Source: Mobula hypostoma
Lineage: Eukaryota
Assembly (NCBI RefSeq): GCF_963921235.1
Contig: NC_086108.1
Span: forward strand, 72,294,001 to 72,358,000
Direction of reading: 5' to 3'
DNA length: 64,000 nucleotides
Part shown: piece by piece, positions 1 through 62,059 of the stretch
How positions within the stretch are numbered: position 1 is the stretch's first letter
Layout of the letters: each line of letters starts with the position of its first letter
Translations under genes and position numbers: made by a program
Notes under the pieces: model-generated
The model's database searches: none
Told to the model about the DNA's origin: nothing
The model's input: only the letters and a program-made list of their open reading frames with translations

Positions 1-2498
1 TATCCCATATAACTAATTTAGACATACCCCCTATATCATTAAAAAGAAAAAATTATTTTATGTGGGTTTCAATGAAAGTGACAAAGTCAGAGTTTTGCAA
101 TAATGTCTGAGACTTGCGCCAAGGTGGGCGGGCAAGAATGACATCATCAAATTCAAAAGACAAACTCAGAGGCGCATGATCAGATAGAGCAATGGCGTCA
201 TATTCGCAAGTTCTAACACTAGGCAAGAAGCGGGGATCGATTATAATATAATCGATCCTCGAATATTTTTTATAAACATGTGAGAAGAAAGAATATTCTG
301 TATTATCGTGATAAAGATACCTCCACAAATCAATCGACCCAAAATCAATCAAAAAGGAATTTGGAAGTCGCTGATTAGTTGAGCTCTTATTAATCATAGG
401 ATTTAAACAACAATTAAAATCCCCACCCATTATGAGCATATATTCATTTAAGTCAGGCAGTAAAGCAAATACCTTTTTAAAAAAAGGATCATCTAAGTTA
501 GGACCATACAAATTAACCAAAACAACTTTTCTGTTACAGATTGTTCCTTTAACAATTAAAAATCTACCATTAGAATCTGATTCAATATCCTCTTGAATAA
601 ATATATTAGGTTTAATGAAAATAGACACGCCTTTTGTTTTACTCTGAGAAGTAGAGTGGAATTGCAATCCATTCCACCATCTAAAAAATCTATTTTGATC
701 TCCCGCCCTGATATGTTTCTCTTGAGCAAAAATTATATCAGGTTGGAATCAGTTAATAATTTTAAAAGTCTTCTTTCGTTTAATAGGATGATTCCAACCA
801 CGTACATTCCAACTTATTATATTAATCCATTTGAACAGCATACTATAATTTCATTCTACTTTATACATGCACAAAGCACATACCAATACAGGATGATCAA
901 AGATGGCGGAGATGAAGAATACAACCAAATAAAAAACACGCATGCTCCGGAACCATCCAATGAGAAAAAACTCCTAACTCTAAACCCACCCACCCACACC
1001 CGGAAACCCGCAAAATGCAAGCGATCTATGATAGAGTTTAAAGCTGCTGACTGCTCTGTCTGTGTTTTCTTTCCCTCCCCCCAGTTAGTAAAAAAGTAGA
1101 GTGACCTTGTGAAAAAGACAATAAAGTCTCAGCAAAAAACAGGTATTTACATTCCATCGACTGATAAACAAGAAAGAACCAAAATAATGTTATCTCTTAG
1201 AGAGGAATACAGTAACATGTTTAAGTTTAATATTAATTCCCTAAAAAAGCTTTAAATTCAATTATAAAATGTTAATAATAAAACAGAAAAATATATAAAA
1301 AGCCCTATTAGTAGGAAAAAACTACCAATTAGCTAACAAGTATTAAATTAAAGGAACAAATCGCCTTATCTTCTTCCCTCAGTCATAAAATGTCCAGAGA
1401 TCATCTGAGCAGAGATACTTAAACCATAAATCTTTCCAAAGGAAAACCAATAATATGCAATAAAGAATATTCTCTCAATGAAATATACAAGTGACCTTCA
1501 TAAATCTGCTTTCCAAAATGCAAATAATATACAAATAGCCAAACAGCCTTTCAGATGGATCATTCAACAGCGGTGTTGGTGACAGTGGCAGGCAAAGCCT
1601 GAACAAAATCCAGTGCAGTTTTTGGATCAAAAAATGTACGAGGAGGAGAATTAGCAGGGAAAATTTTAATTCTTGTCAGATACCTCAAAGACAGGAAAAG
1701 ATTCTTATCATATGCTTGTTTCATTACCAGGGCAAATTTTGATCTTTGTTCCATTATCTCTCTTGGATAATCTTCGTAGAAGCGGAGCTCAGATTCCATA
1801 AATCTAAAAACTCTCTGTTTTCTTGCCTGTCGTATTATTTGATCTTTAATTTTAAAGTGATGAAAGCAAACCAGAACAGATCTTGGTTGACAAGAGTCCT
1901 TCGATTTCGAGATAAACGCCCTGTGTGCCCTTTCTATAGCAGGCGGCTTTGATAGAATGGTAGGAAATAAAGTGTGGAAAAGCTTACCAAAGTAAGCCGT
2001 TAGATCTCCATCTTCAGCTCCTTCTTGCAGCCCAACAATTCTTATATTCCTTTGTCGAGACCTAGTTTCCAGGTTTATAATCTTATTTTGATATCTTTCC
2101 AAACCAGTTGTAGCTTCAGACAGCTTTTGCTTTGTTATCTTCAATTCCTCTTCGTGTGAAATAACTTGAGTTTCCAGGTCTTTAAGTTTTCCCAGAAATG
2201 ACTTCATTTAATTACCATTCTTTTCCAGTTGGTCTTTAATTGATCCATTCTGATCCTTAATTGAATTCAGTGTCCAAACGATATCTTCAGCCCACGATGG
2301 CATTTCATCAGATCTTTCCTTTTACAGCTTTCCTTTCCCATTACCTTTATCACTAGGTTCAGGTAAATTCTTCCCACTTCTTGTAGACATAGACATATTG
2401 ATCACCCTCAAGAATCAACAAGTAAAAATTTTAAATTCAAAGCTTAAACTAGGGGGAAAGAAAGAAAACTAAGAGCAGCAGAAAAATACTGCTACTCC
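1..2498 (-). mobile_element. L1-clade LINE, 5' portion (5'UTR, ORF1, spacer, ORF2 endonuclease), degenerate, runs off the window start
   Basis: ORF 1560-2207 resembles L1 ORF1p (LETRSRQRNIRIVGLQEG, IERAHR, RFYEDY); upstream ATG near 2390. ORF 53-667 has APE endonuclease motifs (NLYGPN, MGGDFN, YSRIDY, SDHAP). Confidence 0.9.
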
Positions 2499-5679: not shown

Positions 5680-8657
5680 GATCTTCTGAAGGATTTGGTG
5701 GATTTGCCTCTCAAGCAAGCAGGTACAGCACCTTTAAACGGACTAAAGTTCATCGCCATAGCCAGATGTGAAACAGAAAGGGGGGTCTCCAAGCCAGGCT
5801 GAAACAGAGGAATGAGATCCCCTCTGCCCAGCATCTTGCTGGCATGTGTGCAGTCGATGGAGAACAAAATTGAGGACCAGAATGCACGATTGATGTAACA
5901 GAGGGAAATGAGAGATTGTTGAGCTATGTTTGATTGAGACACGGCTTACTCCCAGTATGCCAGATATGGCGTTTGGACCCGAAGACTTCTCGATTCACAG
6001 GATGGACCAAACTACTGATTCGGAAAAGGCAAAAGGTGGAGGTGTATGTTTCATGATAAACTTCTCGGTGGTACCCTGATGTGGCGGTTTTGTCAAAATC
6101 ATTTTCCCCTGACATTGAGCACCTAATGATCAAATGTCATCCCTTCTACTTGCCTAAGGAATTCTCATCTGTGAACCAACCGCCAACTATAATCAAGCGC
6201 TTGAGATACTGAATGATGCAAACTCCAAACAAGAAACAATCCGTCCCGATGCATTTCAAATCATGGTCGAAGACTTCAACCAGGCTTGTTTGAAGAAGTC
6301 CCTGCCCAATTACCATCAGCAAATAACCTGTAGCACCAGAAGTCCCAACACTAGACCACTGTTATACTAAGATAAGGAATGCCTACCGTTCCATGCCCAG
6401 ACCACATTTCGGGAAATCTGATCACTTGGCTGTCCTCCTCCTACCTGCATACAGGCAGAGGTTAATGAGCAAAGCTCCAGAGATTAGGACAACAAAGAGC
6501 TGGTCACGGGAGGCAGAGGACCGGCTACAGGATAGCTTCGAGTCAGTGGAATGGGACGTGTTCAAGCACTCATCTGGGGATCTGAATGACTGTCGTGGAC
6601 TTTATTAAAATGGTTGTAGGCAAGTGTGTCTCCACAGAATCATTCAGAGTCTTCTCCAACCAGGAGCCCTGGATGAACCATGAGATCTGTAATCTGCTGA
6701 AGGCCAGATCAGAGGCATTCAAGTCTGGTGACCAAGAGAGTTACAAGAGGTTCAGGTACAATCTCTGGAAAGATATCTCAAAGGTGAATTAGTAATTCTG
6801 GACTAAACTTGAATCAATGAAAGAAGCTCAAAGTTTGTGACGGGGCTTGAATACTATCACCTCTTATCAAGTAAAATCAAGTGACATAGGTGACAACAAG
6901 GCTTCGTTTCCAGGTGAGCTCAATACCTTTTATGCTCACTTTGACCATAGAAACGTGGAGGAACCATCACAAACTGTCACAGCTCCAGATGATCCTGCGA
7001 TTTCGGTCTCTGAGATCTGCTTCCGTCGTGTGAGCACCTTTCAGGATGGTGAATCCAGAAAAGGCATCCGACCCAGACAGGATACCTGGCCAAGCACTAA
7101 AGACCTGTGCTGATCAACTGGCTGGAGTGTTCATTGAGATCTTTAATCTCCCACTTCGGCAGTCGGAGGTACCTACGGACTTCACTTCCACTGGTGCCTA
7201 AGAAGAACTTGATAACCTACCTCAATGATTATCGTCCAGCAGCATTTGCATCCACTGTGATGAAGTGTTTTTTGATGTTGGTGATGAAAAATATCAACTC
7301 CTGCCTGAGAAGCAACTTGGTTCCCTGCCAATTTGCCTACCATTGCAACAGTTCCGTCGCAGATGCCATCTCTTTGGCTCTTTGCTCAACCCTGGAACAT
7401 CTGGACAGCAAAGGCACATATATCAGGATGCTCTTTATTGACTACAGTTCAGCATTCAATACCATCATCTCCTCAAATCTAATCAATAAGCTTCAAGACC
7501 TTTCCCTCAATACCTCCTTCTGCAATTGGATCCTCCATTTCTTCACTTGCATGAGCCCAGTCAGTTCGGATTGGCAACATCTCCTCCACAATCTCCATCA
7601 GCTCAGATGCACGACAAGGCTGTGTGCTTAGCACCCTGCTCTACGCACTTTACATGTATGACTGTGTGGCTAGGCATAGCTACAATGCCGCATTCAAATT
7701 TGCTGACGATACCACTTCTGTAGGCTGAATCAAAGGTGGTGATGAATGGGAAATGGAAAATCTAGCTGAGTGGTGTCATAACAACAGCCTCTCACTCAAT
7801 ATTAGCAAGACAAAGTAGCTGATTATTGACATCAGGAGGAGGAAATCAGACATCCATGAGCTAGTCCTCGTTGGAAGATGAGGTGGAGAAGGTCAGCAAC
7901 TTTAAATTCCTCAGTATTATAAGTTCGGAGGACCTGTCCGAATGCAAGTGGAATTGTGAAGAAAGCACAGCACCACCTCTACATCTTTAGGAGTTTGCAA
8001 AGATTTGGCATGAAATTAAAAACTTTGACAAACTTCTATAGAAGCATGGTGGAGAGTATATTGACTGGTTACATCACAGCCTGATATGGAAACACCAATC
8101 CCCTTGAACAAAAAATCCTACAAAAAGTAGTAGAACTGGCCTAGTCCTCCAAGCCTACCCACCACTGAGCACATCTACGCAAAGCTTTGTCGCAGGAAAG
8201 CAGCATCCATCATCTGGGACCCCACTACTCAGAACATGTTCTCTTCTCGCTGCTGCCATCAGGGAGAAGGTACAGGAGCTTTGGGACTCACAACACCAGG
8301 TTCAGGAACAGTCATTATCCCTCATCCATCAGGCTCCTAAACCAAAGGGGATAACTTCACTCAACTTCACTTTGTCATTGAACTGTTCCCACAATCAATA
8401 GACTCACTTTAAAGGACTCTTCATCTCATGTTCTTGATAATTATTGCCTATTTATGTATTATTATTATTATGTCTTTATTTTTGTATTTGTATTGTGGTT
8501 GAATGCCCAAGTTGATGCAGCCTTTCATTGATTCTATTATGGTTATTTTTCTATTATGGATTTATTGAGTATGTGCACAAGAAAATAAATCTCATGGTTG
8601 TATATGGTGACATATATGTACGTTCAAAATAAATTTACTTTGAACTTTGAACTTTGA
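5680..8657 (+). mobile_element. Rex1/Babar LINE, near full length, degenerate
   Basis: EN motifs (PHFGKSDHLAVLL), RT motifs ([31 protein letters not shown]); 3' tail aataaa-tttac(tttgaac)n. Confidence 0.9.
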
Positions 8658-9049: not shown

Positions 9050-9340
9050 TTCCCCTCCATAGATGTTGCCTGACTTGCAAAGTTCCTCCAACATTTTGTG
9101 TGTGTTGATGAAAATTTCCAGCATCTGCAGAATCTCTTGTGATTATGAACATTGGCAATTTGTTGAGCAAGACACAATCCAGCCTAGTGCAATCATAACT
9201 GATAGTTTACAAACACTGCAGATGCTGAAAATCTAAAATAGAAACAGATAAAAGATGGAAATTCTCAGCAAGTCAGACAACACCTTTGAAGGCAGAACGA
9301 GTTAACTTTTCAGTGACCTTTCATCAGCTAATGAAGGACT
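9050..9340. repeat. Two degenerate PLE-terminal-repeat-derived short elements (+ then -)
   Basis: Share the agatgctgcc..agttcctccagcattttgtgtgtgttg..tccagcatctgcag motif with the Penelope 3' end at 29010-29093. Confidence 0.65.
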
Positions 9341-22399: not shown

Positions 22400-24604
22400 T
22401 ATGGAGCCATGAGGGAGGAGCTGGCCAAAGTTGACTGGTCAGATATCCTAGCAGAAAAGACAGTGGAACAGCAATGGCAGGTATTCTTGGGAATAATGCA
22501 CAAGGTGCAAAATCAGTTCATCCCCCGGAGAAGGAAGGATTCAAAGGGAGGAAAGTGGCCACAGTGGTTGACAAAGGAAGTCAGAGATAGCATAGTATTA
22601 AAAAAGAAGTAGTATAACAGAGCTAAGGTGAGTGGGAAGATGGATGATTAGGAAATTTTTAAGGAGCAACAGAACTTAACTAAAAAGGCAATACGGGGAG
22701 GAAAAATGAGGTATGAACGCAAGCTAGCTAGGAATATAAAGGAGGATAGCAAAAGTTTTTTAGGTATGTGAAGAGAAGGAAGATAGTTAAGAACAATGTT
22801 AGGCCCTTGAAGAATGAATTGGGAGAAATTGTTATGGGAAACAGAGAAATGGCAGACGAATTTAATAAGTACTTTGGATCTGTCTTCACTAGGGAAGACA
22901 CAAGCAATCTCTCAGATGTATGGATGGCCCAAGGACATAGGGTAACAGAGGAACTGAAACAGATTGACATTAGGAAGGAAACAGTGATGAGTAGACTGAT
23001 GGGACTGAAGGCTAACAAATCCCCAAGTCCAGATGGTTTGCATCCTAGGGTACTAAAGGAGGTGGCTCTGGAAATTGCGGATGCATTGGTGATCATTTTC
23101 CGATGTTCCTTAGATTCAGCATCAGTTTCTGAGGATTGGCGAATGGCTAATGTTATCCCACTTTTTAAGAAAGGAGGGAGGGAGAAAACAGAGAACTATC
23201 ACCCTGTTAGCCTAACATCAGTAGTGGGGAAGATGCTAGAGTCCATTATTAAAGATGAAATAGCGGCATATCTTGATAGCAGTGATAGGATTGGGCCGAG
23301 CCAGCATGGATTTACCAAGGGCAAATCATGCTTGACTAATCTATTGGACTTTTTCGAGGATGTAACCAGGAAGATAGACACGGGAGATCCAGTGGATGTG
23401 GTGTACCTTGACTTTCAGAAGGCATTTGATAAGGTACCACATAGGAGATTGGTGGGTAAAATCAGAGCTCATGGCATTGGGGGGAGGATATTGACATGGA
23501 TAGAAAACTGGTTGGCAGATAGAAAGCAAAGGGTAGCAGTGAATAGGTGTTTCTCAGAATGGTAGGTGGTGACTAGTGGGGTGTCACAGGGCTCGGTATT
23601 GGGACCACAGCTGTTTACGATTTACATCAATGATTTAGAGGAAGGCATTGTGAATAACATCAGCAAGTTTGCTGATGATACTAAGCTGGGTGGCAGTGTG
23701 ACATGTGATGAGGATGTTAGGAGAATTCAAGATGACTTGGATAGGCTGGGTGAGTGGGCAGAAACTTGGCAGATGGCGTTTAATGTGAATAAGTGTGAGG
23801 TTATTCACTTTGGGAGCAAGAACAGGAAGGCAGATTATTATCTGAACGGTGTGGAGTTAGGTAAGGGAGAAATACAAAGAGTTCTAGGAGTACTTGTTCA
23901 TCAGTCTCTGCAGGTGAATGAGCAAGTGCAGCAGGCAGTGAAGAAGGCTAATGGAATGTTGGCCTTTATTACAAAGGGAATTGAGTACAAGAGCAAGGAA
24001 ATCCTTTTGCATTTGTACAGGGCCCTGGTGAGACCACACCTGGAGTATTGTGTGTAGTTTTGGTCTCCAGGGTTAAGGAAGGACATCTTGGCTGTGGAGG
24101 AGGTGCAGCGTAGGTTCACTAGGTTAATTCCTGGGATGTCCAGACTGGCTTACGCAGAGAGGTTAGAGAGACTGGGCTTGTACACGCTGGAATTAAGGAG
24201 ATTGAGGGGGGGGATCTGATTGAGACATATAAGATTATTAAGGGATTGGACAAGGTAGAGGCAGGAAATATGTTCCAGATGCTGGGAGAGTCCAGTACCA
24301 GAGGGCATGGTTTAAGAATAAGGGGTAGGTCATTTAGGGCAGAGTTGAGGAGGAACTTCTTCTCCCAGAGAGTTGTGGAGGTGTGGAACGCGCTGCCTCA
24401 GAAGGCAGTGGAGGCCAATTCTCTGGATGCTTTCAAGAAGGAGCTAGATAGGTATCTTATGGATAGGGGAATCAAGGGTTATGGGGACAAGGCAGGAACC
24501 GGGTATTGATAGCAGATGATCAGCCATGATCTCAGAATGGTGGTGCAGGCTCGAAGGGCCGAATGGTCTACTTCTGCACCTATTCTCTATTGCCTATTGT
24601 CTAT
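22400..24604 (+). mobile_element. Relatively young CR1 copy nested in the RTE element
   Basis: RT in one frame 22768-24057 apart from a TAG at 23563-23565 (LDFQKAFD, SQGSVLGP, KFADDTK); tattgc/tattgt repeat tail. Confidence 0.92.
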
Positions 24605-25319
24605 TGAATGCTTTCAAAAAGGGCAATTGAATATCAAAATGATGCCTTTTTATGTTGTATTGATTTCACTAAAGCATTCGACAAAGTGCAACATGAAAAA
24701 TTATTTCAAATTCTCGCTAAACTAAACATTGACGGAAGGGACCAACAACTGCTTCAAAATTTATATTGGAACCAAACAGCGGCAGTAAAAATTGATGATA
24801 ATATAGGCAGTTGGACTAAAATTCAAAGAGGAGTTAGACAGGGATATCTTACCACACTGAAATTATTTATTATCCATAGTGAAATGATTCTCAGAGAAAT
24901 AGAAGACCTAGATGGGATAAAAATTGGAGCTGTTAACATCAACAATATAAGATATGCAGACGATACCACCCTAATAGCAAATGCTGCAGAAGACCTACAA
25001 CTCCTCCTGGACAAGGTAGTACAAACAAGTGCAGATTTCAGTCTAACCATCAACTGTAATAAAACCAAATATATGGTAATTTCAAAACAGCAGGATACTC
25101 CCGACTGCCAATTGTACATCGATAGCCAAGAGACTGAACAAAAAACCAGCTTTAATTACCTTGGTCACTTTATATCACAAGATGCTAGAAGTAAAGTAGA
25201 AATAAAAAGAAGAATTGCCATTGCCAAAATCGACTTCCAAAAAATGAAACCCATTTTTACCAACAGACACCTGTCTATGACAATAAGGCTTAGGCTGCTA
25301 AAATGTTACATCTGGTCAA

Positions 25320-25472
25320 AGGGGCCTCTGCCCCTTTCCTCTTCAGTCCTGACAAAGGGTTCCAGCCCGAAACGTTGACTGATCGTTTCCACAGATGCTG
25401 CCCGACCTGCTGAGTTCCTCCAGTGTGTTGTGAGTGTTGCTTTGACCCCAGCATCTCTAGAGTATTTTGTGT
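25320..25472 (+). mobile_element. Short PLE-derived element with hammerhead-like motif, inserted in RTE
   Basis: TSD ttacatctggtcaa (25306-25319) / ttacctctggtcaa (25473-25486); AGTC CTGACAA AGGG TTCCAG CCC GAAA CGTT GACT at 25345-25380. Confidence 0.85.
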
Positions 25473-28400
25473 TTACCTCTGGTCAATCTTGCTGTATGCT
25501 TCCGAAACATGGACTATAACACCAGAACTCCAAAGAAACTTAGAAACAACAGAAATATGGTTTCTTAGAAGAATGCCAAAAATATCAAATAGAGATAGGG
25601 TAACTAATGAGACAGTACTCCAGCATGCCCATACAGAAAGATCTTTAATGAGAACATTAAATGAGAGGAAACTTAAATTCCTGGGCCATGTCGTCAGAAA
25701 GGGAGAAATAGAATGCCTTACATTACAAGGCCTTATGCCTGGGAAACGCGAAAGAGGAAGGCAAAGAAGAAAATATATGGACACTGTGAAAGAACTAACA
25801 GATCTAAGTGTGCGAGATATCATTGACGCTGCGAGGGATCGTTCGATGTGGAGAGACATGATCGCCCAAGCGTGTAACACGCAAGGCAAATGAAGAAGAA
25901 GCGCTCTACTGCTTCTGCAAAGCAACAAGTTTCGTGACATGACAGTGATAAGAATCCTGATTCTAATTCTGATTTTCTTTGGTCCCAGCTAGCAAAAACA
26001 GATTGGTTGATCTTTCATGTTCTTGCTGGGGAAGTTGTTGCTTGACTGTATGGTGCTTTCAGCTAAATAATAGCAATCCCTAAACTTCAAAGTGTGTCAT
26101 TATGTGAAATGCTTTCAGATGTCTTTGACAAAGCAGATTTGAAACTCAAGCAGCTATCTGGGGAACTGGGTAGTGTAGCGAGGAGATAATCATTCTACTT
26201 TGAAGACTGAAATACAGCCTGGACTGGAGAATAAAAATAACTCTTGCTGGTTTTAAGAATGCTTTATGTAGTGATAAAATAATTTCAATCTACTTTAATC
26301 TATTTTTTAGTGGCATGAATTTATTTGTGTAATTTAGTGCAAATTAGTAACTTCACACCTCAAAGCCACTAAATGGCTGGTTTGAGATATAGGAAGCTTA
26401 TAAAACTGTTGTAATCAGGTTACATTTTCTTGACTGTGGTCTCTTAATAAGCAGAGAATAACCTCTGAACTTTAACTGTCTGAGGCAGAGTGCGATGTCG
26501 TCAGTAAGGGCCTCACCTTTGTCCCCCTTCACTCACACCTCAGCAAGTTCCACATTCGCCATGACGCGGAACTGTTCTTCCACCAGCTCCGTCTTTGAGC
26601 CTACTTCTTCAGCAAGGACTCTCTCACCCCCACCGATGACCCCTTCTTCCACCTTCAACACTCCTCCTCTTCATGGACACCCTGCTCCGGTCTTCTGCCT
26701 GCTCCGGATCTCTTTATTGCTAACTGCCGACGGGACATCAACTGTCTCGACTTCACAGCACCTTGTTCCCATTCCAACCTCACTCCTTCCGAACGCTCTG
26801 CTCTCCACTCCCTCCGCACTAATCCTCACCTTACTATAAAACCCGCCTATAACGGGGGTGCTGTTGTAGTCCGGCATACTGACCTCTACCTTGCCGAGGC
26901 ACAGCGACAACTCGCGGATACCTCCTCTTATTCACCCCTCGATCATGACCCCACCAAGGAGCACCAGGCCATTGTCTCCAACACCATCACCAACTTTATC
27001 CGCTCAGGGGATCTCCCATTCACTGCTACCAACCCTATAGTTCCCACACCTCGCATTTCCCGTTTCTACCTCCTACCCAAGATCCACAAACCTACCTGTC
27101 CAGGTAGACCCATTGTCTCAGCTTGCTCCTGCCCTACCAAACTCATTTCTGCATACCTCAACACTGTTTTATTCCCCCTTGTTCAATCCCTTCCCACCTG
27201 TGTTCATGACACTTCTCACGCTCTGAATTTTTTTGATGGTTTTGAGTTCCCTGGCCCCCACCGCTTTATTTTCACCATGGATGTCCAGTCCCTATATACT
27301 TCGATCCCCCACCAGGAATGTCTCAAAGCTCTCCGCTTCTTTTTTGGATTCCAAACCTAACCAGTTCCCCTCTACCGCCACTCTGCTCCATCTAGCGGAA
27401 TTCGTCCATACTCTTAATAATTTCTCCTTTGGCTCCTCCCACTTCCTCCAAACTAAAGGTGTAGCTATGGGCACCCGTATGGGTCCTAGCTATGCCTGCC
27501 TTTTTGTTGGCTTTGTAAAACAATTCATGTTCCAAGCCTATACTGGTACCTGTCCCCCATTTTTCCTTCGTTACATCGACGACTGCATTGGCGCTGCTTC
27601 CTGCACACATGCTGAGCTCGTTGACTTCATTAACTTTGCTTCCAACTTTCACCCTGCCCTCAAGCTTACCTGGTCCATTTCTGACACCTCCCTCCCCTTT
27701 GTTGATCTTTCTGTCTCTGTCTCTGGAGACAGTTTATCTACTGATGTCTACTATAAGCCTACGGACTCTCACAGCTACCTGAACTATTCCTCTTCTCACC
27801 CTGTCTCTTGCAAAAATGCCACCTGCTTCTCGCAATTCCTCCCTCTCTGCCGCATCTGCTCTCAGGATGAGGCTTTTCATTCCAGGACAAAGGAGATGTC
27901 CTCCTTTTTTAGAGAAAGGGGCTTCCCTTCCTCCACCATCAACTCTGCTCTCAAACGCATTTCCCCCATTTCTCTCACATCTGCTTTCACCCCATCCTCC
28001 CGCCACCCCACTAGAAATAGGGTTCCCCTTGTCCTCATCCTACCACCCCACCAGCCTCCAGGTTCAACATATTATTCTCCGTAACTTCCGCCACCTTCAA
28101 CGGGATCCCACCACTAAGCATATCTTTCCCTCCCCCCCACCCCACTTTTCGCAGGGATCGCTCCCTACGCGACTCCCTTGTCCATTCATCCCTCCCATCC
28201 CTTCCCACCAATCTCCCTCCCGGCACTTATCCTTGTAAGCGGAACAAGTGCTACACATGCCCTTACACTTCCTCCGTCACCACAATTCAAGGCCCCAGAC
28301 AGTCCTTCCAGGTGAGGCGACACTTCACCTGTGAGTCGGCTGGGGTGATATACTGTGTCCGGTACTCCCGGTGCGGCCTTCTATATATTCGCGAGACCCG

Positions 28401-28666
28401 ACGCAAGCTGGGAGACCGTTTCGCTGAACACCTATGCTCTGTCCGCCAGAGAAAGCAGGATCTCCCAGTGGCCATACGTTTTAATTCCACGTCTCATTCC
28501 CATTCTGATATGTTTATCCACGGCCTCCTCTACTGTCAAGATGAAACCACTCTCAGGTTGGAGGAACAACACCGTATATTCCGTCTGGGTAGCCTCCAAC
28601 CTGATGGCATGAACATTGGCTTCTCTAACTTCCATTAATGGCCCACTTCCCCTTCGTACCCCATCC

Positions 28667-28667
<1 letters not shown>

Positions 28668-28702
<35 letters not shown>

Positions 28703-28705
28703 TTT
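28668..28705. repeat. (TTTA)n microsatellite inside the Penelope 3' UTR
   Basis: Direct reading. Confidence 0.95.
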
Positions 28706-28958
28706 TATTATTAAGTTTTTTTCTCTCTCTCCTTTTTCTCCCTCTGTCCCTCTCACTATACTCCTTGCCTATCCTCTGGGTTCCCCCCTCCCCCTTTCTT
28801 TCTCCCTAGGCCTCCCGTCCCATGATCCTCTCATATCCCTTTTGCCAATCAACTGTCCAGCTCTTGGCTCCATCCCCCCCGCCCCATCTTCTCCTATCAT
28901 TTCGGACCTCCCCCTCCCCCTCCCACTTTCAAATCTCTTACTAGCTCTTCTTTCAGTT

Positions 28959-28994
28959 AATCCTGACGAAGGGTCTCGGCCCGAAGCGTCGACT
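28959..28994 (+). ncRNA. Minimal type I hammerhead ribozyme motif (GAAA changed to GAAG)
   Basis: AATC CTGACGA A GGG TCTCGG CCC GAAG CGTC GACT. Confidence 0.65.
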
Positions 28995-29431
28995 GTACCT
29001 CTTTCTATGGATGCTGCCTGGCCTGCTGCGTTCACCAGCAATTTTTATGTGTGTTGCTTGAAATTCCAGCATCTGCAAATTTGCTCGTGTTTGAGAGAAT
29101 GATAGAGTTTACTTTGTATCTGCTTCTGCTGGTCCTAAATTGGAAGTGGTTATACTAGCATTAATACCTAACTTCAATTTAGAATAGAATGGAGAACTAT
29201 AGTGTCCTTTTTGTCTAACAGTGTCTATTAAGGCCAGACATCTGACCAGAGAGTGTTCTGCGTATGTTCAGTCAACATAGGGCCAGAGCTTGCTATCTGG
29301 CTTGTCATGCTATCACAAAGGAAACAGGGTCATAGCCTCATGCAGCATGAGAACAGGCCCATTGGCCCAACTCATCGATGCCAACCAATATATTTTCCTG
29401 AGCATACATTTGGCCCATACCCCTCTAAACC

Positions 29432-31124: not shown

Positions 31125-31262
31125 TAGCAACACACACAAAATGCTGGAGGAACTTAGCAAGCCAGGCTGTAACTATGGTAAAAAGTACAGTCGATGTTTC
31201 AGGCAAAGACCCTAGTCCTGCCGAAGGGTCTCAGCCCGAAATGTCATCTGTACTCTTTTCCA
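31125..31262. repeat. Inverted pair of PLE-derived short elements with hammerhead remnants
   Basis: Minus piece ending agtcgatgtttcaggcaaagaccct abuts plus piece AGTC CTGCCGA AGGG TCTCAG CCC GAAA TGTC (from 31214). Confidence 0.75.
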
Positions 31263-31747: not shown

Positions 31748-31882
31748 CACACACAAAATGCTAGAGGAACTCAGCAGGACAGACAGTGTCCATGGAAATG
31801 AATAAACAGTCTATATTTTGGGCTGAGACCTTTCTTCAGGCTGTAGGAATTTCCAGCTTCTATAGAATATCTTGTGTTTATT
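31748..31882. mobile_element. Short PLE-derived element inserted in Gypsy gag
   Basis: 17-bp TSD atatgtagactgagcaa (31731-31747) / atatgtaaactgagcaa (31883-31899); degenerate hammerhead on - strand at 31808-31842. Confidence 0.8.
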
Positions 31883-34800
31883 ATATGTAAACTGAGCAAA
31901 TTGAGCAGTATTTTGAAGAAAATAAATTAGCCAATGAGAAGCAAGTGCCAGTTTTGCTTGAATGCATCGGGCTTAAATGCATACAGAAATACTAACTGCT
32001 CCAATCAAACCAGCTGAAATGAAATTTGCTGATGTAGTGAAATTAATGCAAGAACATTTAGCACCAAAACCATTCTTGATTTCAGAACACTTTACATTTC
32101 TTCAGTAGAATCAAAATGAAGGGGAGTCCACTTTTAGCGCACATGGTTGAATTGAAGAAGTTCTCTGAGCATTGTCAGTTCAGTAATGGGCTTAATAATG
32201 CATTGAGAGATTGTTTAGTTTGTGGAATCTTACAAGAAATAATTCAAAAAACAGTCCCTAACTGAAGCACAACTTACATTTAAAAGAGCAATTGAAACAG
32301 CTGTATCAATGGATACAGCAGACAGAGATGCAGTTGAGTTGTACTTAGGAATGAAAGTGGGTGTGAACAAAATTGCAATGTCTAAACAGAAACTGGCCTG
32401 GTTGACCAAATTGTGTTACTGTTGTGCCAGGAGCTCACTTACACCAGACCAATTCAGGTTTAAAGGCAAAAGTTGCAGATAATGCAACAAAACAGGAGAC
32501 TAACAAAGAGCATGTCAGGCAAACAAAAATAAATGGACTGAACAAGGTAGAGAAAAAGATAAAAAGTGAAGTTGCAGTTTCAAAAGGAGCACTAATCTGC
32601 ATGCTGTTGATGAAAAATCTGATAATGATAAGAATAACACAGTACTGGGTAGCATTGAGATTTAAAATGTGAAAACTAACAATAGAAAATTGTGAACAGT
32701 AAATTAATTTAAATGGAATTGGGTACTGGCTTGGCTGTTTCAGTCATTCTACAAAATGAGGTCGAACAGCATTTCAAAGATACTGAACTGAAGGTTGCTA
32801 AGAACATATGCTATAGAGAAGATAACTCTTATGGGAATGACATTTGTAACAGTGAAATACAACTAACTAACAGCCACACTGGGCTTGAGTGTGGTAAAAA
32901 CAAGAGGGCCAGCATTGTGTAGCTTTGATTGGATGTAATAACTATATCTTGATTGGAGATCCATCCACCACTTGCATGCCATGTCCCCTGCAATAAAGTG
33001 AACAGACAGCAGATTAAGAAAGGTACTGGATGACACCACAGCAGTGTTCAAGGATGGCACAGGAAAACTCAAACATATCAGTGGTGAAATATTGTAAGAT
33101 GAAAATACTGCACCCTCATTTTACAATGCCCATCAGGTTCCTCATACCATATGTGATAAAGTAGCCAGTGAGCTAATTTGCATGGAAGTTGAAGGAATTC
33201 TTTTTAAGGTTGAGTGGAACCCATAGGCAACACCACTGGTCCCAGTAGACAAGAAGAATGGGTCTGTCAGGATCTGTGGTGATCTTAAGGTCACTATCAA
33301 CCCTGCACTGAAAGTAGATCAATGCCCTCTACCCTGGAATGAGGATGTCTTTGTAAACCTTTCTAGATGGAAACACTTCAAAAAGTCGTCTTAGTCGGAG
33401 ACAGGAGAAGAGTCCAAAGTGTTTCTCACCATAAACACTCACAAAGAGCTTTATCGCTGTAATAGGCTTATTTCTGGAGCAGCATCTGTGCTGCATTCTG
33501 GCATAAAGCTATGGACCAGATGCTGCAAGACTCTATTTTACCTGGATGACATTGTTGTTACTAGTGAGGATGACCAAGAACATCTCCAAAATCCCAAGAC
33601 AGTGTTAAAAAGATTAGAAGATAATGGGCACAGAACACGATGCAAGAAGTGTGAACTCTTCAAACCAAGTATCACTTACTGCGGTCACAGCATTGATGCA
33701 CAAGGTTTACACAAGTGTGCTGAGAAATTTCAAGCAGTGGTGGATTCTCCAAGACCAAAGGATACGTCACAGTTGTGGTTCTTTTTAGGATTTGTCAATT
33801 ACTATAGTAGGTTCCTGTCAAATCTAGCTACTGTGCTGCCCCCCCCCCCACCCCGCCAAGGTCATTACTACTGGGAAGAAATGACAACAGACAAAGCAAT
33901 GTGAGTGAGGGGGCATTTGAAAAGGTAAAGGAAAAGATGAAGTCAGATACCGTACTCACACATTATGATCCACAGTGTACAGTGAAGCCTGCCTGTGATG
34001 CCTCACCTTATGGTATAGGTGCAGTCACGTCACAAGTTATGAGTGATGGAAGTAAATGCTCCACAGCCTTTGCATCACGTTCCCTTACTGCTGCAGAGAA
34101 AAATTGCAGACAGATTGACAGAGAGGCCTTGAGTCTGGCTTGAGAAGTAAAACATTTCAACAGACCCTTTATGGGAGATAGTATACCCTTGTTACTGGTC
34201 ATCAACCACTGGTGTAAATTTCAATCCACAGAAGGGTGTTCCACTAACAGCAGCAGCACAAATGTAGAGACGAGCTCTGATTCTTGGAGGACACATTAAC
34301 AATATTGAATTCAAGAGGATGATTATTCATGGAAATGCTGATGGATTGTCTGATTTATCCTTGGAAAATGAAATACCTGAAAAATTTGCAAAAGAGGATA
34401 GTCCTCTTGATGTGTCCTCCAAATGCAAATCTACTGCTACACTACAATAAAGAAGGCTTACCATTCCTTCCCGAAACCGCATCTTGGCAAGTTGGAACAT
34501 TTGGCTGTACTCCTACTAACTGCATACAGACAGAGCAAGGCTCCAGAGATCAAGACAACTAAGAGGTGGTTGCAGGAGGCAGAGGGCTGGTTACAAGACT
34601 GCCTTGAGCCAGTGGACTGGGCCATGATCAAGAAACCATCTGAGGACCTGAATAACTACATCAGGGTCACGACAAACTTCATTAAAACGGCTGTGCATGA
34701 GTGCGTTCCATGAAATCATTCAGGGTCTTCCAAAATCAGAAGCCCTGGATGAACAATGAAATCTAGAATTTGCTGAGAGTCAGATCAGAGGCATTCAAGA

Positions 34801-35042: not shown

Positions 35043-37566
35043 AACAAACATAAAAGTTGCTGGTGAACGCAGCAGGCCAGGCAGCATCTCTAGGAAGCGG
35101 TGCAGTCGACGTTTCAGGCCGAGACCCTTCGTCAGGTCTAACTGAAGGAAGAGTGAGTAAGGGATTTGAAAGTGGGAGGGGGAGAGGGAGATCCAAAATG
35201 ATAGGAGAAGACAGGAGGGGGAGGGATGGAGCCAAGAGCTGGACAGGTGATTGGCAAAGGGGATACAAGAGGATCATGGGACAGGAGGACCGGGGAGAAA
35301 GACGGGGGAGGGGCGGGGACCCAGAGGATGGGCAAGGGGTATATTCAGAGGGACAGAGGGAGAAAAAGGAGAGTGAGAGAAAGAATGTGTGTATAAAAAT
35401 AAGTAACGGATGGGGTACAAGGGGGAGGTGGGGCATTAGCGGAAGTTAGAGAAGTCGATGTTCATGCCATCAGGTTGGAGGCTACCCAGACGGAATATAA
35501 GGTGGTGTTCCTCCAACCTGAGTGTGGCTTCATCTTTACAGTAGAGGAGGCAGTGGATAGACATGTCAGAATGGGAATGGGATGTGGAATTAAAATGTGT
35601 GGCCACTGGGAGATCCTGCTTTCTCTGGCGGACAGAGCGTAGGTGTTCAGCAAAGTGGTCTCCCAGTCTGCGTCGGGTCTCGCCAATATATAAAAGGCCA
35701 AATCGGGAGCACCGGATGCAGTATATCACCCCAGCCGACTCACAGGTGAAGTGTTGCCTCACCTGGAAGGACTGTTTGGGGCCCTGAATGGTGGTAAGGG
35801 AGGAAGTGTAAGGGCATGTGTAGCACTTGTTCCGCTTACACGGATAAGTGCCAGGAGGAAGATCAGTGGGAAAGGATGGGGGGGACGAATGGACAAGGGA
35901 GATGCGTAGGGAGCGATCCCTGCGGAATGCGGGGGGGGGAGGGAAAGATGTGCTTAGTGGTGGGATCCCGTTGGAGGTGGCGGAAGTTACGGAGAATAAT
36001 ATGTTGCACCCGGAGGCTGGTGGAGTGGTAGGTGAGGACCAGGGGAACCGTATTCCTAGTGGGGTGGCGGGAGGATGGAGTGAGAGCAGATGTGCGTGAA
36101 ATGGGGGAGATGCATTTAAGAGCAGAGTTGATAGTGGAGGAAGGGAAGCCCCTTTCTTTAAAAAAGGAAGACATCTCCCTCGTCCTAGAATGAAAAGCCT
36201 CATCCTGAGAGCAGATGTGGCGGAGACGGAGGAATTGCGAGAAGGGGATGGCGTTTTTGCAAGAGACAGGGTGAGGAGAGGAATAGTCCAGATAGCTGTG
36301 AGAGTCAGTAGGTTTATAGTAGACATCAGTGGATAAGCTGTCTCCAGAGACAGAGACAGAAAGATCTAGAAAGGGGAGGGAGGTGTCGGAAATGGACCAG
36401 GTAAACTTGAGGGCAGGGTGAAAGTCGGAGGCAAAGTTAATAAAGTCAACGAGCTCTGCATGCGTGCAGGAAGCAGCGCCAATGCAGTCATCGATGTAGC
36501 AAAGGACAAGTGGGGGACAGATACCAGAATAGGCACGGAACATAGATTGTTCCACAAAGCCAACAAAAAGGCAGGCATAGCTAGGACCCATACGGGTGCC
36601 CATAGCTACACCTTTAGTTTGGAGGAAGTGGGAGGAGCCATAGGAGAAATTATTAAGAGTAAGGACTAATTCTGCTAGACGGAGCAGAGTGGTGGTAGAG
36701 GGGAACTGATTAGGTCTGGAATCCAAAAAGAAGCATAGAGCTTTGAGACCTTCCTGATGGGGGATGGAAGTATATAGGGACTGGACATCCATGGTGAAAA
36801 TAAAGCAGTGGGGGCCAGGGAACTTAAAATCATCGAAAAGTTTAAGAGCGTGAGAAGTGTCACGAACATAGGTAGGAAGGGATTGAACAAGGGGGGATAA
36901 AACCGTGTCGAGGTATGCAGAAACGAGTTCGGTGGGGCAGGAGCCAGCTGAGACAATAGGTCAGCCAGGACAGGCAGGTTTGTGGATCTTGGGTAGGAGG
37001 TAGAAACGGGAAGTGCGGGGTGTGGGAACTATAAGGTTGGTGGCAGTGGATGGGAGATCCCCTGAGCGGATAAAGTCGGTGATGGTGTGGGAGACAATGG
37101 CCTGGTGCTCCTTAGTGGGGTCACGATCGAGGGGTAAATAAGAGGAGGTATCCGCGAGTTGTCGCTGTGCCTCGGCAAGGTAGAGGTCAGTACGCCAGAC
37201 TACAACAGCACCCCCTTTATTGGCGGGTTTAATAATAAGGTTAGGATTAGTGCAGAGGGAGTGGAGGGCAGAGCGTTCCGAAGGAGTGAGGTTGGAATGG
37301 GGACAAGGTGCGGTGAAGTCGAGACGGTTGATGTCCCGTCGGTAGTTAGCGATAAAGAGATCCAAAGCAGGGAGAAGACCAGAGTGGGGTGTCCATGAAG
37401 AAGAGGAGGGTTGAAGACGGGAGAAGGGGTCATCGGTGGCGGTGGAAGAGTTCTTGCCGAAGAAGTAGGCTCGGAGACGGCGGAAGAAAAGTTCCGCATC
37501 GTGGCGAACACGGAACTCGCTGAGGTGTGGGCGAAGGGGGACAAAGGTGAGGCCCTTACTGAGTAA
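35043..37566 (-). mobile_element. Penelope-like element, 5'-truncated, young (one stop, one homopolymer frameshift)
   Basis: LSKGLTFVP through FYLLPKIHK, TGA at 36961-36963, RT (YIDD) in the same frame, shift at the G run near 35930-35943, GIY-YIG (VIYCIRC..LYIGET); TSD tgatacaact at 35033-35042 and 37567-37576. Confidence 0.95.
35104..35139 (-). ncRNA. Minimal type I hammerhead ribozyme motif, core intact
   Basis: Minus strand AGAC CTGACGA A GGG TCTCGG CCT GAAA CGTC GACT; GUC cleavage triplet, palindromic ACGU at stem III, one mismatch in stem I. Confidence 0.72.
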
Positions 37567-49647: not shown

Positions 49648-50212
49648 TTTAGAGATACAGCACAGTAACAGGCCCAGCTGGCCCAATGAACTCACGTCAG
49701 CCAATTACACCCCAAGTGACTAATTAACCTAATAACCCGTGAATCGTTTGGAATGTGGGAGGAAACTGGAGCACCTGGAGGAAACCCATGTAGTTACGGG
49801 GAGAACTTACAAACTCCTTACACAGAATGATGGAAATCAAACCCTAGTCATCAAACATCAAAGGCATCCGTTAGTCTTGCGAGACCATGGATCTGTGCCT
49901 GGAAAGTCTTCACTCTCCAGGGCGCAGGCCTGGGCAAGGTTGTATGGAAGACCAGCAGTTGCCCATGCTGCAAGTCTCCCCTCTCCACGCCACCGATGTT
50001 GTCCAATGGAAGGGCACTAGGGCCCATACAGCTTGGCACTGTGTCGTCGCAGAGCAATGTGTGATTAAGTGCCTTGCTCAAGGATACAAGACGTTGCCTC
50101 AGCTGGGGCTCGAAAACACGACTTTCAGGTTGCTAGTCCAATGCCTTAACCACTTGGCCACGTGCCCACACTGGCACTGCAAACGCTAACTACTACACCA
50201 CCATGCCACCCC
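49648..50212 (-). mobile_element. HE1/V-SINE-like SINE interrupted by a second tRNA-derived SINE
   Basis: V-domain-like ggagcacctggaggaaacccatg..ggggagaacttacaaactcc; CR1-like tail; head resumes at about 50170. Confidence 0.75.
49850..50167 (-). mobile_element. tRNA-derived SINE
   Basis: Minus strand GGGCACGTGGCCAAGTGGTTAAGG (A box), TTCGAGCC (B box), CCTTGAGCAAGGCACTTAA central motif, RTE-like 3' end. Confidence 0.78.
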
Positions 50213-53404: not shown

Positions 53405-53540
53405 CAAACAAGAGAAAATCTGCAGATGCAGGAAATCCAAGCAACACACACAAAATGCCGGAGGAACTCAGCAGGCCAGGCAGCTTCTATGAAAAAGAGT
53501 ATAGTCGACATTTTGGGCCAAGGCACTTCATCATTCCTGA
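53405..53540 (-). repeat. PLE-terminal-repeat-derived element with decayed hammerhead
   Basis: Minus strand ATGATGA AGTG CCTTGG CCC AAAA TGTC GACT followed by the conserved terminal sequence. Confidence 0.75.
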
Positions 53541-55246: not shown

Positions 55247-55872
55247 CCGCCAGAGAAAGCAGGATCTTCCAGTGGCCACACATTTTAATTCTATGTCTCA
55301 TTCCCATTCTGATATGACTATCCACGGCCTCCTCTACTGTAAAGATGAAGCCACACTCAGGTTGGAGGAACAACACCGTACATTCCGCCTGGGTAGCCTC
55401 CAACCTGATGGCATGAACATTGACTTCTCAAACTTCCGCTAATGCCCCACCTCCCCCTCATACACCATCTGTTATTTATTTATATACACACATTCTTTTA
55501 CTCTCTCTCCTTTTTCTCCTTCTGTCCCTCTCACTATACCCCTTGCCCATCCTCTGGTTTTCTCTCCCTCCCCCTTTTCTTTCTCCCTAGGCCTCCTGTC
55601 CCATGATCCTCTCATATCCCTTTTGCCAATCAACTGTCTAGCTCTTGGCTCCATCCCTCCACCTCCTGTTTTCTCCTATCATTTCAGATCTCCTCCCCCC
55701 TCCCATTTTCAAGTCTCTTACTAGCTCTTTTTTCAGTTAGTCCTGAGGAAGGGTCTTAGCCCGAAATGTCGACTGTACCTCTTCCTAGAGATGCTACCTG
55801 GTCTGCTGCGTTCACCAGCAACTTTTATGTGTGTTGCTTGAAATTCCAGCATCTGCAGATTTCCTCGTGTTT
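55247..55872 (+). mobile_element. Penelope 3' fragment (end of GIY-YIG domain plus terminal region)
   Basis: RQRKQDLPVATHFNS..FRLGSLQPDGMNIDFSNFR*, near-identical to the copies at 26477 and 35043. Confidence 0.92.
55739..55774 (+). ncRNA. Minimal type I hammerhead ribozyme motif, core intact
   Basis: AGTC CTGAGGA A GGG TCTTAG CCC GAAA TGTC GACT; stem I AGTC/GACT, stem II GGG/CCC, GUC triplet. Confidence 0.72.
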
Positions 55873-58860
55873 GAGCAGGTGGGATTAAAGTGTGGGGGGA
55901 GTCAGGGAAAATGTCATGGCAGTCCTCAGTCAGAACAGACTGTATAGCTTGTCTAGTGAAGAATTATGGGTAGAACTGAGGAATAAGAAAGGCATGACCT
56001 TGTTAATGGGATGATATTATAAGCTACCCAACATTCCATAGGATTTAGAGGAGCAAATTTGTAGATAGATTGCAGACTGTTGTAAGAAACATAAGGTTGT
56101 GATAGCAAGTGATTTTAACTTTCCACTTATTGACTGGGACACCCATATCCCTCATCCCTCATCCCTCATCCAAAAGGGATGGGTGGGATAGAGTTTGTTA
56201 AATGTGTTCGGGAAAGTTGCCTTAATCAGTACATAGAAGTCCCAAGTAGAGAGAATGCAATACTTACTCTCCTATTAAGGAATGAGACAGGGCAGGTGAC
56301 AGAGTTTGTGTAGTGGAGCACTTTGCATCTAGTGATCATAATGCCATTAATTTCAAGGTAATTATGAATAAAGCCTTAATGCCTTTAGACATAGGAACAG
56401 GATTAGGCCGTTTGGCCCATTGACTTAGCTCTGCAATTTCTTCATGTCAGATCCAATTTTCCTCTCAGCTCCAATCTCCTACCTTCTCCCTGTATCTCTT
56501 CATTCGCTGACCAATCAAGAATCTATCAATTTCTGCCTTAAATATGTATAAAGATGATCTCCACAGCTGGCTGTGGCAAAGAATTCCACAGAATTACCAC
56601 TCTCTGTCTGAAGAAGTTCCTCTTTGACTCCGTTCTAAAATGATATCACTCTATTCTGAGACTGTGTCCTCTGGTTTTAGACTTTCCCACCATAGGAAGA
56701 TCCACTCCACATCCACTCTGTTGAAGCCTTTCACCATTCGATAAGTTGCAATGAAGTCATCCCTCATTCTTCTGAATTCCGGTGAATACAGGCTCAGAGC
56801 CATCAAATGTTCTTCATATGACAAGCCCTTCAATCCTGGAATAATTTTTGTGAACCTCCTTTGAACCTTCTCCAGTTTCAGCACATTCTTTCTAAGATAA
56901 GGGACCCAAAACTGCTCAAAATACTCTGAGGCCTCATCAGTGCTTTATTACGTCTCAACATTACATCCTTGCTCATATATTTTAGTTGAAATGAACGCAA
57001 ACATTGCATTTGCCTTCCTCACCACAGTTTCAACCTACAAATTAACCTTTTGTGAATCCTGCACAATGACTCCCAAGTCCCTCTCTGCCTCAGTTTTTTT
57101 TTGTATTTTCCCTCCATTTAGAAAATAGCCAACCCTTTCACCAAACTGCATGACCATACACTTCCCGACACTATATTCCATCTGCCACTTATTTGCCCAT
57201 TCTCCCAATCTGCCTAAGACCTTCTGCAGGCTTACTTCCTCAAAACTACACATCCCTCCACCTATCTTCACATTATCTGCAAACTTTGTAACAAAGCCAT
57301 CAATTCCATCATCCAAATCATTGACATATCTAACACGCTGGTTAAGATTTTACTGCTAATGCTGTAGGGTATGTGGTTTAATGGTTTTCTATAGAAGCAG
57401 TTTGTTCTGCTGGTAGTCTTTGGGTTTACCGCAAAAGATGAGGGGTTGTGATGAAGATGCTTAGGAATTCCGTGTCATCCAATCAGGATGTTAGAATTGA
57501 GAGAAGGTTCTAGAGAACTTTGGGTGGAGAGCTTTTGTGATGGGCACTAAGGTGGGTGGAGGTCTCATGTACAGATCCTGTCATTTTTGTCAGTTGGATT
57601 CTGTCACTCTCCGAGAGAAACTACTCCACGCACAAATTGGAATTTCTGACATTGAAATGGACTGTGATGGATATATTAATTGATAATCTATGTGGTGCCA
57701 AGTTCAAGGTGAGGACTGGCAACAATCCATTGACTTATATCTTGACCTTGGCGAAATTCGATGCCGCAGACCAGTGCTGGTTGGCAGTGTTGTCTGTTGA
57801 CAATTTCAGCCTATAGTGCCGGCCAGGGAGCCGGAACATTGGTGCAGATGCATTGTCCCGATGTTCACATGAAGGGCCAGAAATGGACTGAGAGTGAGAG
57901 AACATTCCTGCATCTGGAGTTAAAGCAAGGTGCAAGTTTTCTGCACGGGGAATTCAGAGCCAAAGCTAGGGCGGGATAGAACTGTGGATCATTTGGGAAC
58001 TTCAGGTTGCACCATTCCACAAGCTTAATGCAACTTGACCACCTGAATATGAAAGAGTTGTCTGCGTCGAGTCCTGGGGAGGTGGCAGCAGCTCAGCAAG
58101 ATGACCCTTGTATGGGAACCATTCGGTCAGCTGTTGTGGAAGGGGATATGGCCCAAGCTGAGAAGACAAATCAACCTGTCATACCTCTACAACTGAGAGA
58201 ATGGCACAAACTGGAGTTGAGGAAACAGGTTCTGTACAGGGTCGCATCTCCTGAAGAGAGGCCTTGGCCTCTCCTGTTGGTTTTACCTGAGAAGCACCAG
58301 AGGATTATGTTGAAGTCATTTCATGATGATTCAGGTTATTTGGGATTTGACAAGGCCTATGGATTGGTCCGAGATTGATTCTTCTGGCCTCGAATAGAGC
58401 CTGAGGTCGAAGAGTACTGTAAGTCGTGCATTCAATGTGTTCGGAGGAAGACACTGCCTATGAGGTTCGCTCCCTTTTCCTATTTACAAAGTGCGGGGAC
58501 ACTTGATCTAGTATGTGTGGATTTCCTCTCCACAAAGCCTGATTCCAGCAACATTGCGAATGTCTTGGTTATTACTGATCACTACACCAGATAATGCGCA
58601 AGCCTTCCCTACAAAGGATCAGAGGGCATCCACCATGGCCAAAGTGTTATGAGAAAAGTATTACATTCATTATGGCCTTCCAAGATGGATACACAGTGAT
58701 TAGGGAAGGAATTTTGAGAGTAGGCTGACACATGAGTTACTGAGCATACTTGGAGGTGAGGACTATGCCTTATCACCCTCAGGGTGATCCCCTGCCTGAG
58801 AGGTTCAGCCAGACATTGCTAGACATGCTCAGAACCCTGGATATCAGCAAGAAGAACAAA

Positions 58861-59620
58861 ACGAAACCCACTTCAACTCCGCTTCCCATTCCCATTCGGA
58901 TATGTCTATACATGGCCTCCTCTACTGCCATGATAAGGCTAAGCTCAGGTTGGAGAAGCAACACCTCATACTGTATATCGTCTGGGTAGTCTCCAACCCC
59001 TTGGGTATGAACATTGAATTCTGCATCTTCCAGTAATTCCCTCCCCCTCCCTTCCCCCATCCCAGTTTCACTCCGCCCCTCCCCCAGTTGCCTACTACCT
59101 CCTTCATGGTTCCGCCTCCTTCTACTACTCATTGAAGACGTCCTGGTCATCCACTGCGCCTAATCCCATCTCCAGCCGTCTAGACTCTGTCTTGCCACTG
59201 GATCCAGATGGGAATTGGGAAGAGAGAGTGAGGCTGACGCTGCGCAACTCTCCCTCACTTAAATCCAAATCACACGCTAGTCTTGACACCATCATCAATG
59301 GTGTCGAGGTCCTCATCGATGTCGACGATGGACGAACAACAACAACAACTACTCATTGTGCTTTCCCTTATTCCTTCTTCATCTTTCCTGCCTATCACCT
59401 CCCTGCCTCCCCTCCCCCACCCCTTTATCTTTCCCCTTACTGGCTTTTCACCTGGAACCTACCAGCCTTCTCCTTCCCACCCTCCCGCCACCTTCTTTAT
59501 AGGGCCTCTGCCCCTTCCTTCTACAGTCCTGACGAAGGGTTCCTGCCCAAAATGTTGACTGATCGTTTCCACGGATGCTGCCCGACCTGCTGAGTTCCTC
59601 CAGCGTGTTGTGAGTGTTGC
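58861..59620 (+). mobile_element. Penelope 3' fragment of a second subfamily inserted in the Gypsy integrase
   Basis: HFNSASHSHSDMSIHGLLYC..RLEKQHL; hammerhead remnant AGTC CTGACGA AGGG TTCCTG CCC AAAA TGTT GACT at 59525-59560. Confidence 0.85.
59135..59347 (+). mobile_element. Unclassified 213-bp retroposed fragment with (AAC)n tail
   Basis: Exact 11-bp TSD actactcattg at 59124-59134 and 59348-59358; terminal hairpins. Confidence 0.8.
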
Positions 59621-61914: not shown

Positions 61915-62059
61915 AAACAAAAGATAATCTGCAGATGCTGGAAATACAAGCAACTCACACAAAATACTGGAGGAACTCAGTAGTCCAGACAGTATCTATG
62001 GAAAAGAGTACAGTCTACATTTCAGACCGAGACCCTTCAGCAGGACTGGAGGAAGAAAA
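61915..62059 (-). mobile_element. Short PLE-derived element with mutated hammerhead, inserted in CR1
   Basis: TSD ggcctatcatt (61902-61912) / ggcctataatt (62060-62070); minus strand AGTC CTGCTGA AGGG TCTCGG TCT GAAA TGTA GACT at 62012-62047. Confidence 0.8.

Follow-up and report, generated by a model that had tools for sequence, protein, structure and literature searches.

The 64-kb window, i.e. the whole stretch of DNA analysed, contains a 5'-truncated Neptune-type Penelope-like element (PLE) on the plus strand (26462 to 29093), in which a broken ORF for reverse transcriptase (RT) and GIY-YIG endonuclease, with its stop at 28636-38, is followed by a 3' pseudo-LTR carrying a minimal type I hammerhead motif and a tail of about 100 nt (28995 to 29093). 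Across 2,636 nt this element shares 88% identity with a young genomic copy, and its frames gave no Pfam match. The motif (28959 to 28994, plus strand) is a decayed copy of subfamily A, comprising the 5' strand of stem I (28959-62), CUGACGA (28963-69), an extra A (28970), stem II (28971-82), GAAG (28983-86, with A15.1 replaced by G), CG, UC (28989-90) and the 3' strand of stem I (28991-94), and the predicted cut falls after 28990. Stem I, AAUC/GACU, has one mismatch, and GAAG removes both A15.1 and the palindrome. The family form has the hammerhead core C3UGAnGA9, G12AAA15.1 and U16.1-H17, from which this single copy departs through GAAG and subfamily C1 through C6.

Motifs are present at each of the four coordinates in the original prediction (28959, 35104 on the minus strand, 55739 and 59525). 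The motif at 35104 to 35139 (minus) lies in the youngest PLE copy of the window (35043 to 37563, minus; subfamily A, CCU form), which has RT, CX4CX2C linker, GIY-YIG and a stop at 35436, is 95% identical to a young genomic copy, and matches the Pfam domains RVT_1 (E 2.3e-5) and GIY-YIG (E 9.8e-4), both below the curated cut-offs. Its core and ACGU palindrome are intact, stem I has a mismatch (AGAC/GACU), and stem II is GGG/CCU with G10.1-U11.1, the state of the youngest subfamily. The motif at 55739-55774 (plus), in a short PLE 3' fragment (55247 to 55873, plus), has an intact core and stem I, with AUGU replacing ACGU, while that at 59525-59560 (plus), in a subfamily B 3' fragment (58866 to 59620, plus), has G12 changed to A, AUGU and the GUU triplet typical of B. 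The earlier description of the core as intact at 35104 and 55739 and mutated at 28959 and 59525 thus matches our copy-by-copy reading, and each of the four has some defect, none being a perfect motif. That stems I and II are kept is true of stem I at 55739 and not of 28959 and 35104, with their mismatches, nor of GGG/CCU at 35104; likewise, the palindromic ACGU given for stem III is the family form, present in only one of the four (35104). Stem II, described as 3 bp, is better read as 4-5 bp (GGGU/GCCC), and the distance from stop to motif, put at about 330 nt, comes to 320, 296 and 296 nt for main-subfamily copies and 488 nt in the 59525 copy owing to an insertion of about 214 nt, which lies in the 3' UTR at 59135-59348. 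Four copies also proved too few, as a fuzzy scan of the window finds nine. The additional motifs are one of subfamily B with G8 changed to A (25345 to 25380, plus), a C6-type motif, CUGCCGA (31214 to 31249, plus), in a short inverted pair with 31126-31213, an old decayed motif with a subfamily C2 tail (31808 to 31843, minus), an old decayed, 5'-truncated motif with its tail (53503 to 53538, minus), and one of subfamily C1 with the family-level A6C core state, CUGCUGA (62012 to 62047, minus). Tail-only remnants of the family without a readable motif lie at 9059, 10502 (minus), 10554 and 51621.

The family shows the architecture of EN+ PLEs, a single ORF with RT followed by a C-terminal GIY-YIG, together with partial tandems, inverted 5'-truncated segments (loci L114 and L117-L119) and an optional tail of 30-40 nt. 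At the genomic locus L112 a DKG motif, YIDD and GIY-YIG lie in one ORF, whose RT stretch scores 0.97 to atlas clusters holding RVT_1, HTH_animal and DUF8422. The linker between RT and endonuclease, CKRNKCYTC, is of the form CX4CX2C, and a CX2-5CxxC linker is the mark common to Neptune and Nematis (PMC8557442). We prefer to place the element in Neptune and not in Nematis, since the clades found in vertebrates are Neptune and Poseidon (bioRxiv 10.64898/2026.07.22.740005). This anatomy bears out the combination central to the original prediction, RT and GIY-YIG together with a minimal type I hammerhead in the pseudo-LTR of a PLE. The family is abundant, occupying 22,917 of 510,000 bases of unselected genome stretches.

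A sequence-independent descriptor of the minimal hammerhead has 16 matches in 574 kb, made up of the window and 510 kb of stretches evenly spaced over the genome, versus 0-1 per dinucleotide shuffle (20 shuffles), and all 16 belong to the window's Neptune-type family. The bare core pattern has nine matches in the window, which is not above chance (15 of 100 shuffles reach nine), and the proposed search with hammerhead covariance models was unproductive, the Rfam run on the window yielding six weak matches at E up to 10 and no hammerhead. Throughout the 3.48 Gb genome, exact matches to the intact 36-mer number 4,891 for the CCC form and 32,886 for the CCU form, and the reversed controls do not occur.

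A pattern restricted to the core, with the main stem II left out, has 143 matches in the genome versus five in controls, and revealed two more PLE families, D and E, which are Poseidon-type and unrelated to the family of the window (A); stop-free GIY-YIG frames lie upstream of the motif at three D and five E loci. Family D (Poseidon/Xena-like, with a 7-bp stem II; L126, L129, L131 and L152-L176) reads AGAA-CUGAAGA-A-GCCUCUC GGAU GAGUGGC-GAAACGUC-UUCU in the 25 nearest copies, and closely resembles the fugu Xena and cichlid rows in Fig. S3 of PMC4209133. In family E (Poseidon-like; L125, L147 and L177-L201) the 25 nearest copies have a 7-bp stem II, GAUGGCA/UGUCAUC, at which the frame begins, the ATG opening stem II and lying 26 nt ahead of the cut. 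When one representative each of A, D and E is compared, together with majority rows for D and E, CUGAnGA-A...GAAA-CG-UC is kept in all three while four stem pairs are altered on both sides: relative to A, in stem I a C-G becomes A-U (D) and a U-A becomes A-U (D) or C-G (E), and in stem II one G-C becomes C-G (D) or A-U (E) and another C-G (D) or U-A (E). There are also U-U mismatches, one in stem I of E and one in stem II of D. The extra A between 9 and 10.1 is found in all families and the palindromic helix III remnant ACGU in the A, D and E representatives, and pair 10.1-11.1 is G-C in A (CCC), B, C1, D and E and G-U in the youngest form. An extra base between 9 and 10.1, G10.1 and a palindromic 15.1-16.1 are the published diagnostics of minimal PLE hammerheads (PMC4209133), and the family form has every one of them. 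The original prediction staked itself on core and stems being kept across related PLE families, and this they are, with compensated stems in D and E. A GAG/CUC variant was considered as a further compensated subfamily and rejected, its loci spanning several tail types and resembling pattern-selected decay. At L075, L120 and L068 the 3' end of stem II reads CCG, which breaks pair 10.1-11.1 and possibly marks a small sub-lineage.

Conservation within the family was assessed in 1.11 Mb of evenly spaced, unselected stretches, in which 171 copies were recruited by the tail alone and 150 classified. In young subfamily A non-CpG letters differ at 0/366 in the core, 6/512 in the stems and 37/1,581 in the tail, the last count taking in sub-lineage differences, while the old subfamilies lose the core as fast as the tail (C2, 21/198 vs 75/846; C1, 7/76 vs 24/333). 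Among otherwise intact copies genome-wide, a change at A6 (375 copies, including some members of the C6 subfamily) is about as common as one at a loop U (420). That the core is kept in young A and decayed in old copies indicates constraint at the level of the lineage and not on inserted copies.

The core itself varies at position 6. One type of copy recruited by its tail repeatedly shows CUGCyGA, and among the 30 nearest relatives of one C6 copy, a query that itself has C6, this position is C in 26, T in three and A in one, many of them with an endonuclease end upstream (C1 and C6-type sites: window 62012-62047, minus, and 31214-31249, plus; L202-L231). Matched exactly as 24-mers in an identical 5' context, C6 occurs 1,703 times and A6 982 times, the A6 sites, among the matches listed, being almost all CUGAUGA, a different subfamily. 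The unselected 1.11 Mb has C6 in 14 of 92 readable motifs, and its C1 copies spanning the motif have C in five of seven and A in two. The older subfamily C1 has spread carrying A6C family-wide, and A6 is the state of the younger subfamilies, A and B. Divergence from their own consensus is 9.8% for subfamily C2, 7.2% for C1, 2.8% for B and 2.6% for A. C1 shows no private changes in 395 non-CpG endonuclease columns, the internal splits around it are carried by three sites versus two, which fits either reversion or C1 as a side branch, and an unrooted tree of 74 copies separates A from C1/C2 with support of 1.0, being star-like inside C1/C2 and containing several misaligned long branches. Natural hammerheads with A6C are known; they retain a low but detectable activity that falls strongly in sub-millimolar Mg2+, and A6C ribozymes cleave slowly in Mg2+ and well in Mn2+ (PMC3088659, PMC7151607). 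It is conceivable, though we hold it doubtful, that C1 reached tens of thousands of copies (an extrapolation from the 14 in 1.11 Mb) with A6C crippling cleavage in Mg2+, and that the younger dominant subfamily descended from it and regained A6; here both the slow cleavage and the reversion are inferred. If true, C1 would record, within one genome, how a retroelement ribozyme was naturally knocked down and then rescued. The same core substitution is found in the natural A6C hammerhead of phage Bcep176 (PMC3088659, PMC7151607), a single phage motif for which slow cleavage in Mg2+ and faster cleavage in Mn2+ were measured, whereas C1 is a multi-thousand-copy retroelement subfamily seen only as sequence. 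Our literature search found no PLE report of A6C/CUGCCGA hammerheads; Lunse et al. may already list C6 variants.

The original placement of the hammerhead at the PLE 3' end is right in that the motif follows the GIY-YIG stop, and incomplete in that the pseudo-LTR motif also precedes the ORF in partial tandems. At L112 such a partial tandem runs motif, tail, ORF, motif, with the RT and GIY-YIG ORF flanked by identical motifs separated by 3,271 nt, i.e. one motif per pseudo-LTR of the full element, and with the likely start MPTAKK (ATG) 138 nt past the predicted cut. An upstream motif on the same strand occurs in three of 30 loci containing the 5' part of the ORF. At L115 (1819-2734, minus) a pseudo-LTR tandem with motifs 380 nt apart forms a retrozyme-like unit ending a partial tandem. 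The 3' ends of 93 copies are bimodal, 30 lying 60-74 nt and 46 lying 95-109 nt past the cut, which matches the optional PLE tail (30-40 nt) that Frangieh et al. (2024, PMC11167929) link to reverse transcription starting at two internal sites. Integrated copies continue across the cut site, suggesting that their templates were uncut there or religated. No pile-up of 5' ends was seen at the cut site, where two of the 150 classified copies exactly start. Many short insertions are head-to-head inverted pairs with the fold-back point on or close to the motif's 5' edge (e.g. L062:2488-2579, L099:5663-5724, G000:C1:2546804-2546875 and window 31126-31249).

A branch-point-like word and pyrimidine tract enter stem I at 28930 to 28960 (plus), the AG of stem I reading AA in this copy. 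The pyrimidine-rich tract noted before the motif in the original prediction is general, with a mean of 77-87% pyrimidine in four Neptune subfamilies, and ends in YAG two bases before C3 in 46/49, 8/8, 24/30 and 5/7 of their copies; family D has the YAG and no tract, and family E has neither. Tract and AG are likely to constitute a 3' splice site, a sequence-based assignment that we put no higher because the AG doubles as stem I and the entire 3' region is pyrimidine-rich. Neither a splice donor site nor spliced genomic copies were found: 14 of 100 subfamily A motifs lack the usual upstream flank, with no common upstream exon, and several of these are inverted fold-backs. In Drosophila virilis Penelope the intron's 3' end abuts helix I, whereas here the pyrimidine tract and YAG end 2 nt before C3 (PMC4209133; Schostak et al. 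2008, PMC2377424), and splicing has been shown for the D. virilis element (PMC2377424), while we only infer it for that of the window.

Folding with ViennaRNA, a model that ignores tertiary contacts of the core, forms stems I and II in the isolated intact 36-mer, in which the core GACG also pairs with CGUC. In a 198-nt context an upstream hairpin wins, with a probability of 0.00-0.01 for stem I and at most 0.34 for stem II, and a modelled active dimer reaches -14.7 vs -32.1 kcal/mol for the best two-strand fold. In this model the active form is not favoured, which counts against efficient unaided cleavage and is in line with reports that such motifs have low activity (PMC4209133). The dimer model of PLE hammerhead cleavage is repeated in reviews (PMC6765202), and eight of nine Xenopus dimers did not cleave (bioRxiv 2026.07.22.740005). 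The hammerhead of the Anolis Poseidon element PAc cleaves with the help of protein, while PAc core mutants insert normally in vitro and no RNA ends were observed at the PAc cut site (PMC11167929).

We consider it probable that the motif is a minimal type I hammerhead of a Neptune-type PLE pseudo-LTR, likely cutting slowly at GUC, probably as a dimer or aided by protein, and that the decayed copy at 28959 is a poor cutter. The upstream motif of a tandem donor would then shorten the transcript to a point 138 nt ahead of the ATG, reverse transcription would begin some 65 or 100 nt beyond the downstream motif and copy through the uncut site, and selection would act on a few donor lineages and not on dispersed copies. 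That the motif is instead a chance likeness within a repeat has a negligible probability, for although the bare core pattern in the window stays within the range of shuffles and Rfam has no hammerhead match, the full descriptor far exceeds its shuffles, the motif agrees with the published PLE hammerhead consensus (PMC4209133), and three PLE families share the core with different paired stems; these cross-family swaps rule out a chance origin.

It is more plausible, though still unlikely, that this is a real hammerhead by descent whose cutting is dispensable for movement, the motif being weakly kept as a passenger or as a folded signal (a splice site, protein-binding or priming landmark). Such a state would accommodate A6C in the whole of C1 and C6 in unselected DNA, U11.1 in the most abundant young form, the extension of integrated copies across the cut site, and the Naiad PLEs, which thrive without hammerheads (PMC8557442); it sits less well with a core that Neptune and both Poseidon families retain alongside compensated stems, and with A6 in the younger subfamilies A and B, while A6C ribozymes still cleave (PMC7151607, PMC3088659) and G10.1-U11.1 is found in several published PLE motifs (PMC4209133). 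We think it highly improbable that the host uses the dispersed motifs as functional ribozymes, or that they form a non-autonomous retrozyme family of their own, as the 28959 copy is damaged in its core, copies decay, the four originally predicted copies sit behind a GIY-YIG end and the window has no tandem array, even if the copy number is very high and the L115 spacing of 380 nt is near the mean retrozyme length of 363 bp in one chondrichthyan (bioRxiv 2026.07.22.740005).

Minimal hammerheads in metazoan PLE pseudo-LTRs, including those of fish Xena, Poseidon and Neptune, were described by Cervera and De la Pena in 2014 (PMC4209133), so the pairing of hammerhead and PLE is already published, and what is added here is a lineage and a very high copy number. 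Shared with the published motifs are type I topology, a helix I of 4-5 bp, the extra base after A9, G10.1, a palindromic helix III remnant, one motif per pseudo-LTR and thousands of solitary copies, and the Acropora Neptune motif in Fig. S3 of that paper has a similarly short helix II, GGGC/GCUC. The counts given there reach about 9,000 per genome, compared with at least 37,777 exact intact copies here; its Table S1 and Fig. S3 are without cartilaginous fish, and the Fig. S3 rows compared include no C6 core. A 2026 preprint describes hammerhead retrozymes from a single chondrichthyan and PLEs from five vertebrate classes (bioRxiv 2026.07.22.740005), and a literature search found no paper devoted to the window's Neptune-type family. 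PAc of Anolis carolinensis (PMC11167929) resembles this family in its hammerhead at the junction of pseudo-LTR and ORF, two internal RT starts, an optional tail and a template of uncut RNA, but belongs to the Penelope/Poseidon clade and has an ORF beginning inside stem II, where the window's family has a Neptune linker and a start 138 nt past the cut; family E of this genome has the PAc layout. Non-LTR retrozymes likewise have type I hammerheads derived from PLE pseudo-LTRs and are known in one chondrichthyan genome (bioRxiv 2026.07.22.740005), but these are tandem non-coding arrays, whereas the window copies are dispersed, truncated ends of an element that codes for protein: the window has no tandem series of non-coding units that each hold a complete hammerhead, and the one two-unit tandem is that at L115. 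The PLE hammerhead is near-universal in canonical PLEs, yet was dispensable for insertion in the sole in vitro test. In this genome, young and nearly identical donors, several families with swapped stems and the natural core variants A6, C6 and U11.1 are available for side-by-side assay.

Other retroelement fragments in the window, likely LINEs with APE-type endonuclease and RVT_1 domains, lie at 53-748 (minus), 7101-7631, 22750-25378, 33395-33904 and 61451-61912 (minus), and a tRNA-like stretch at 50105-50167 (minus; 23.7 bits, below the Rfam threshold) is possibly a SINE head.
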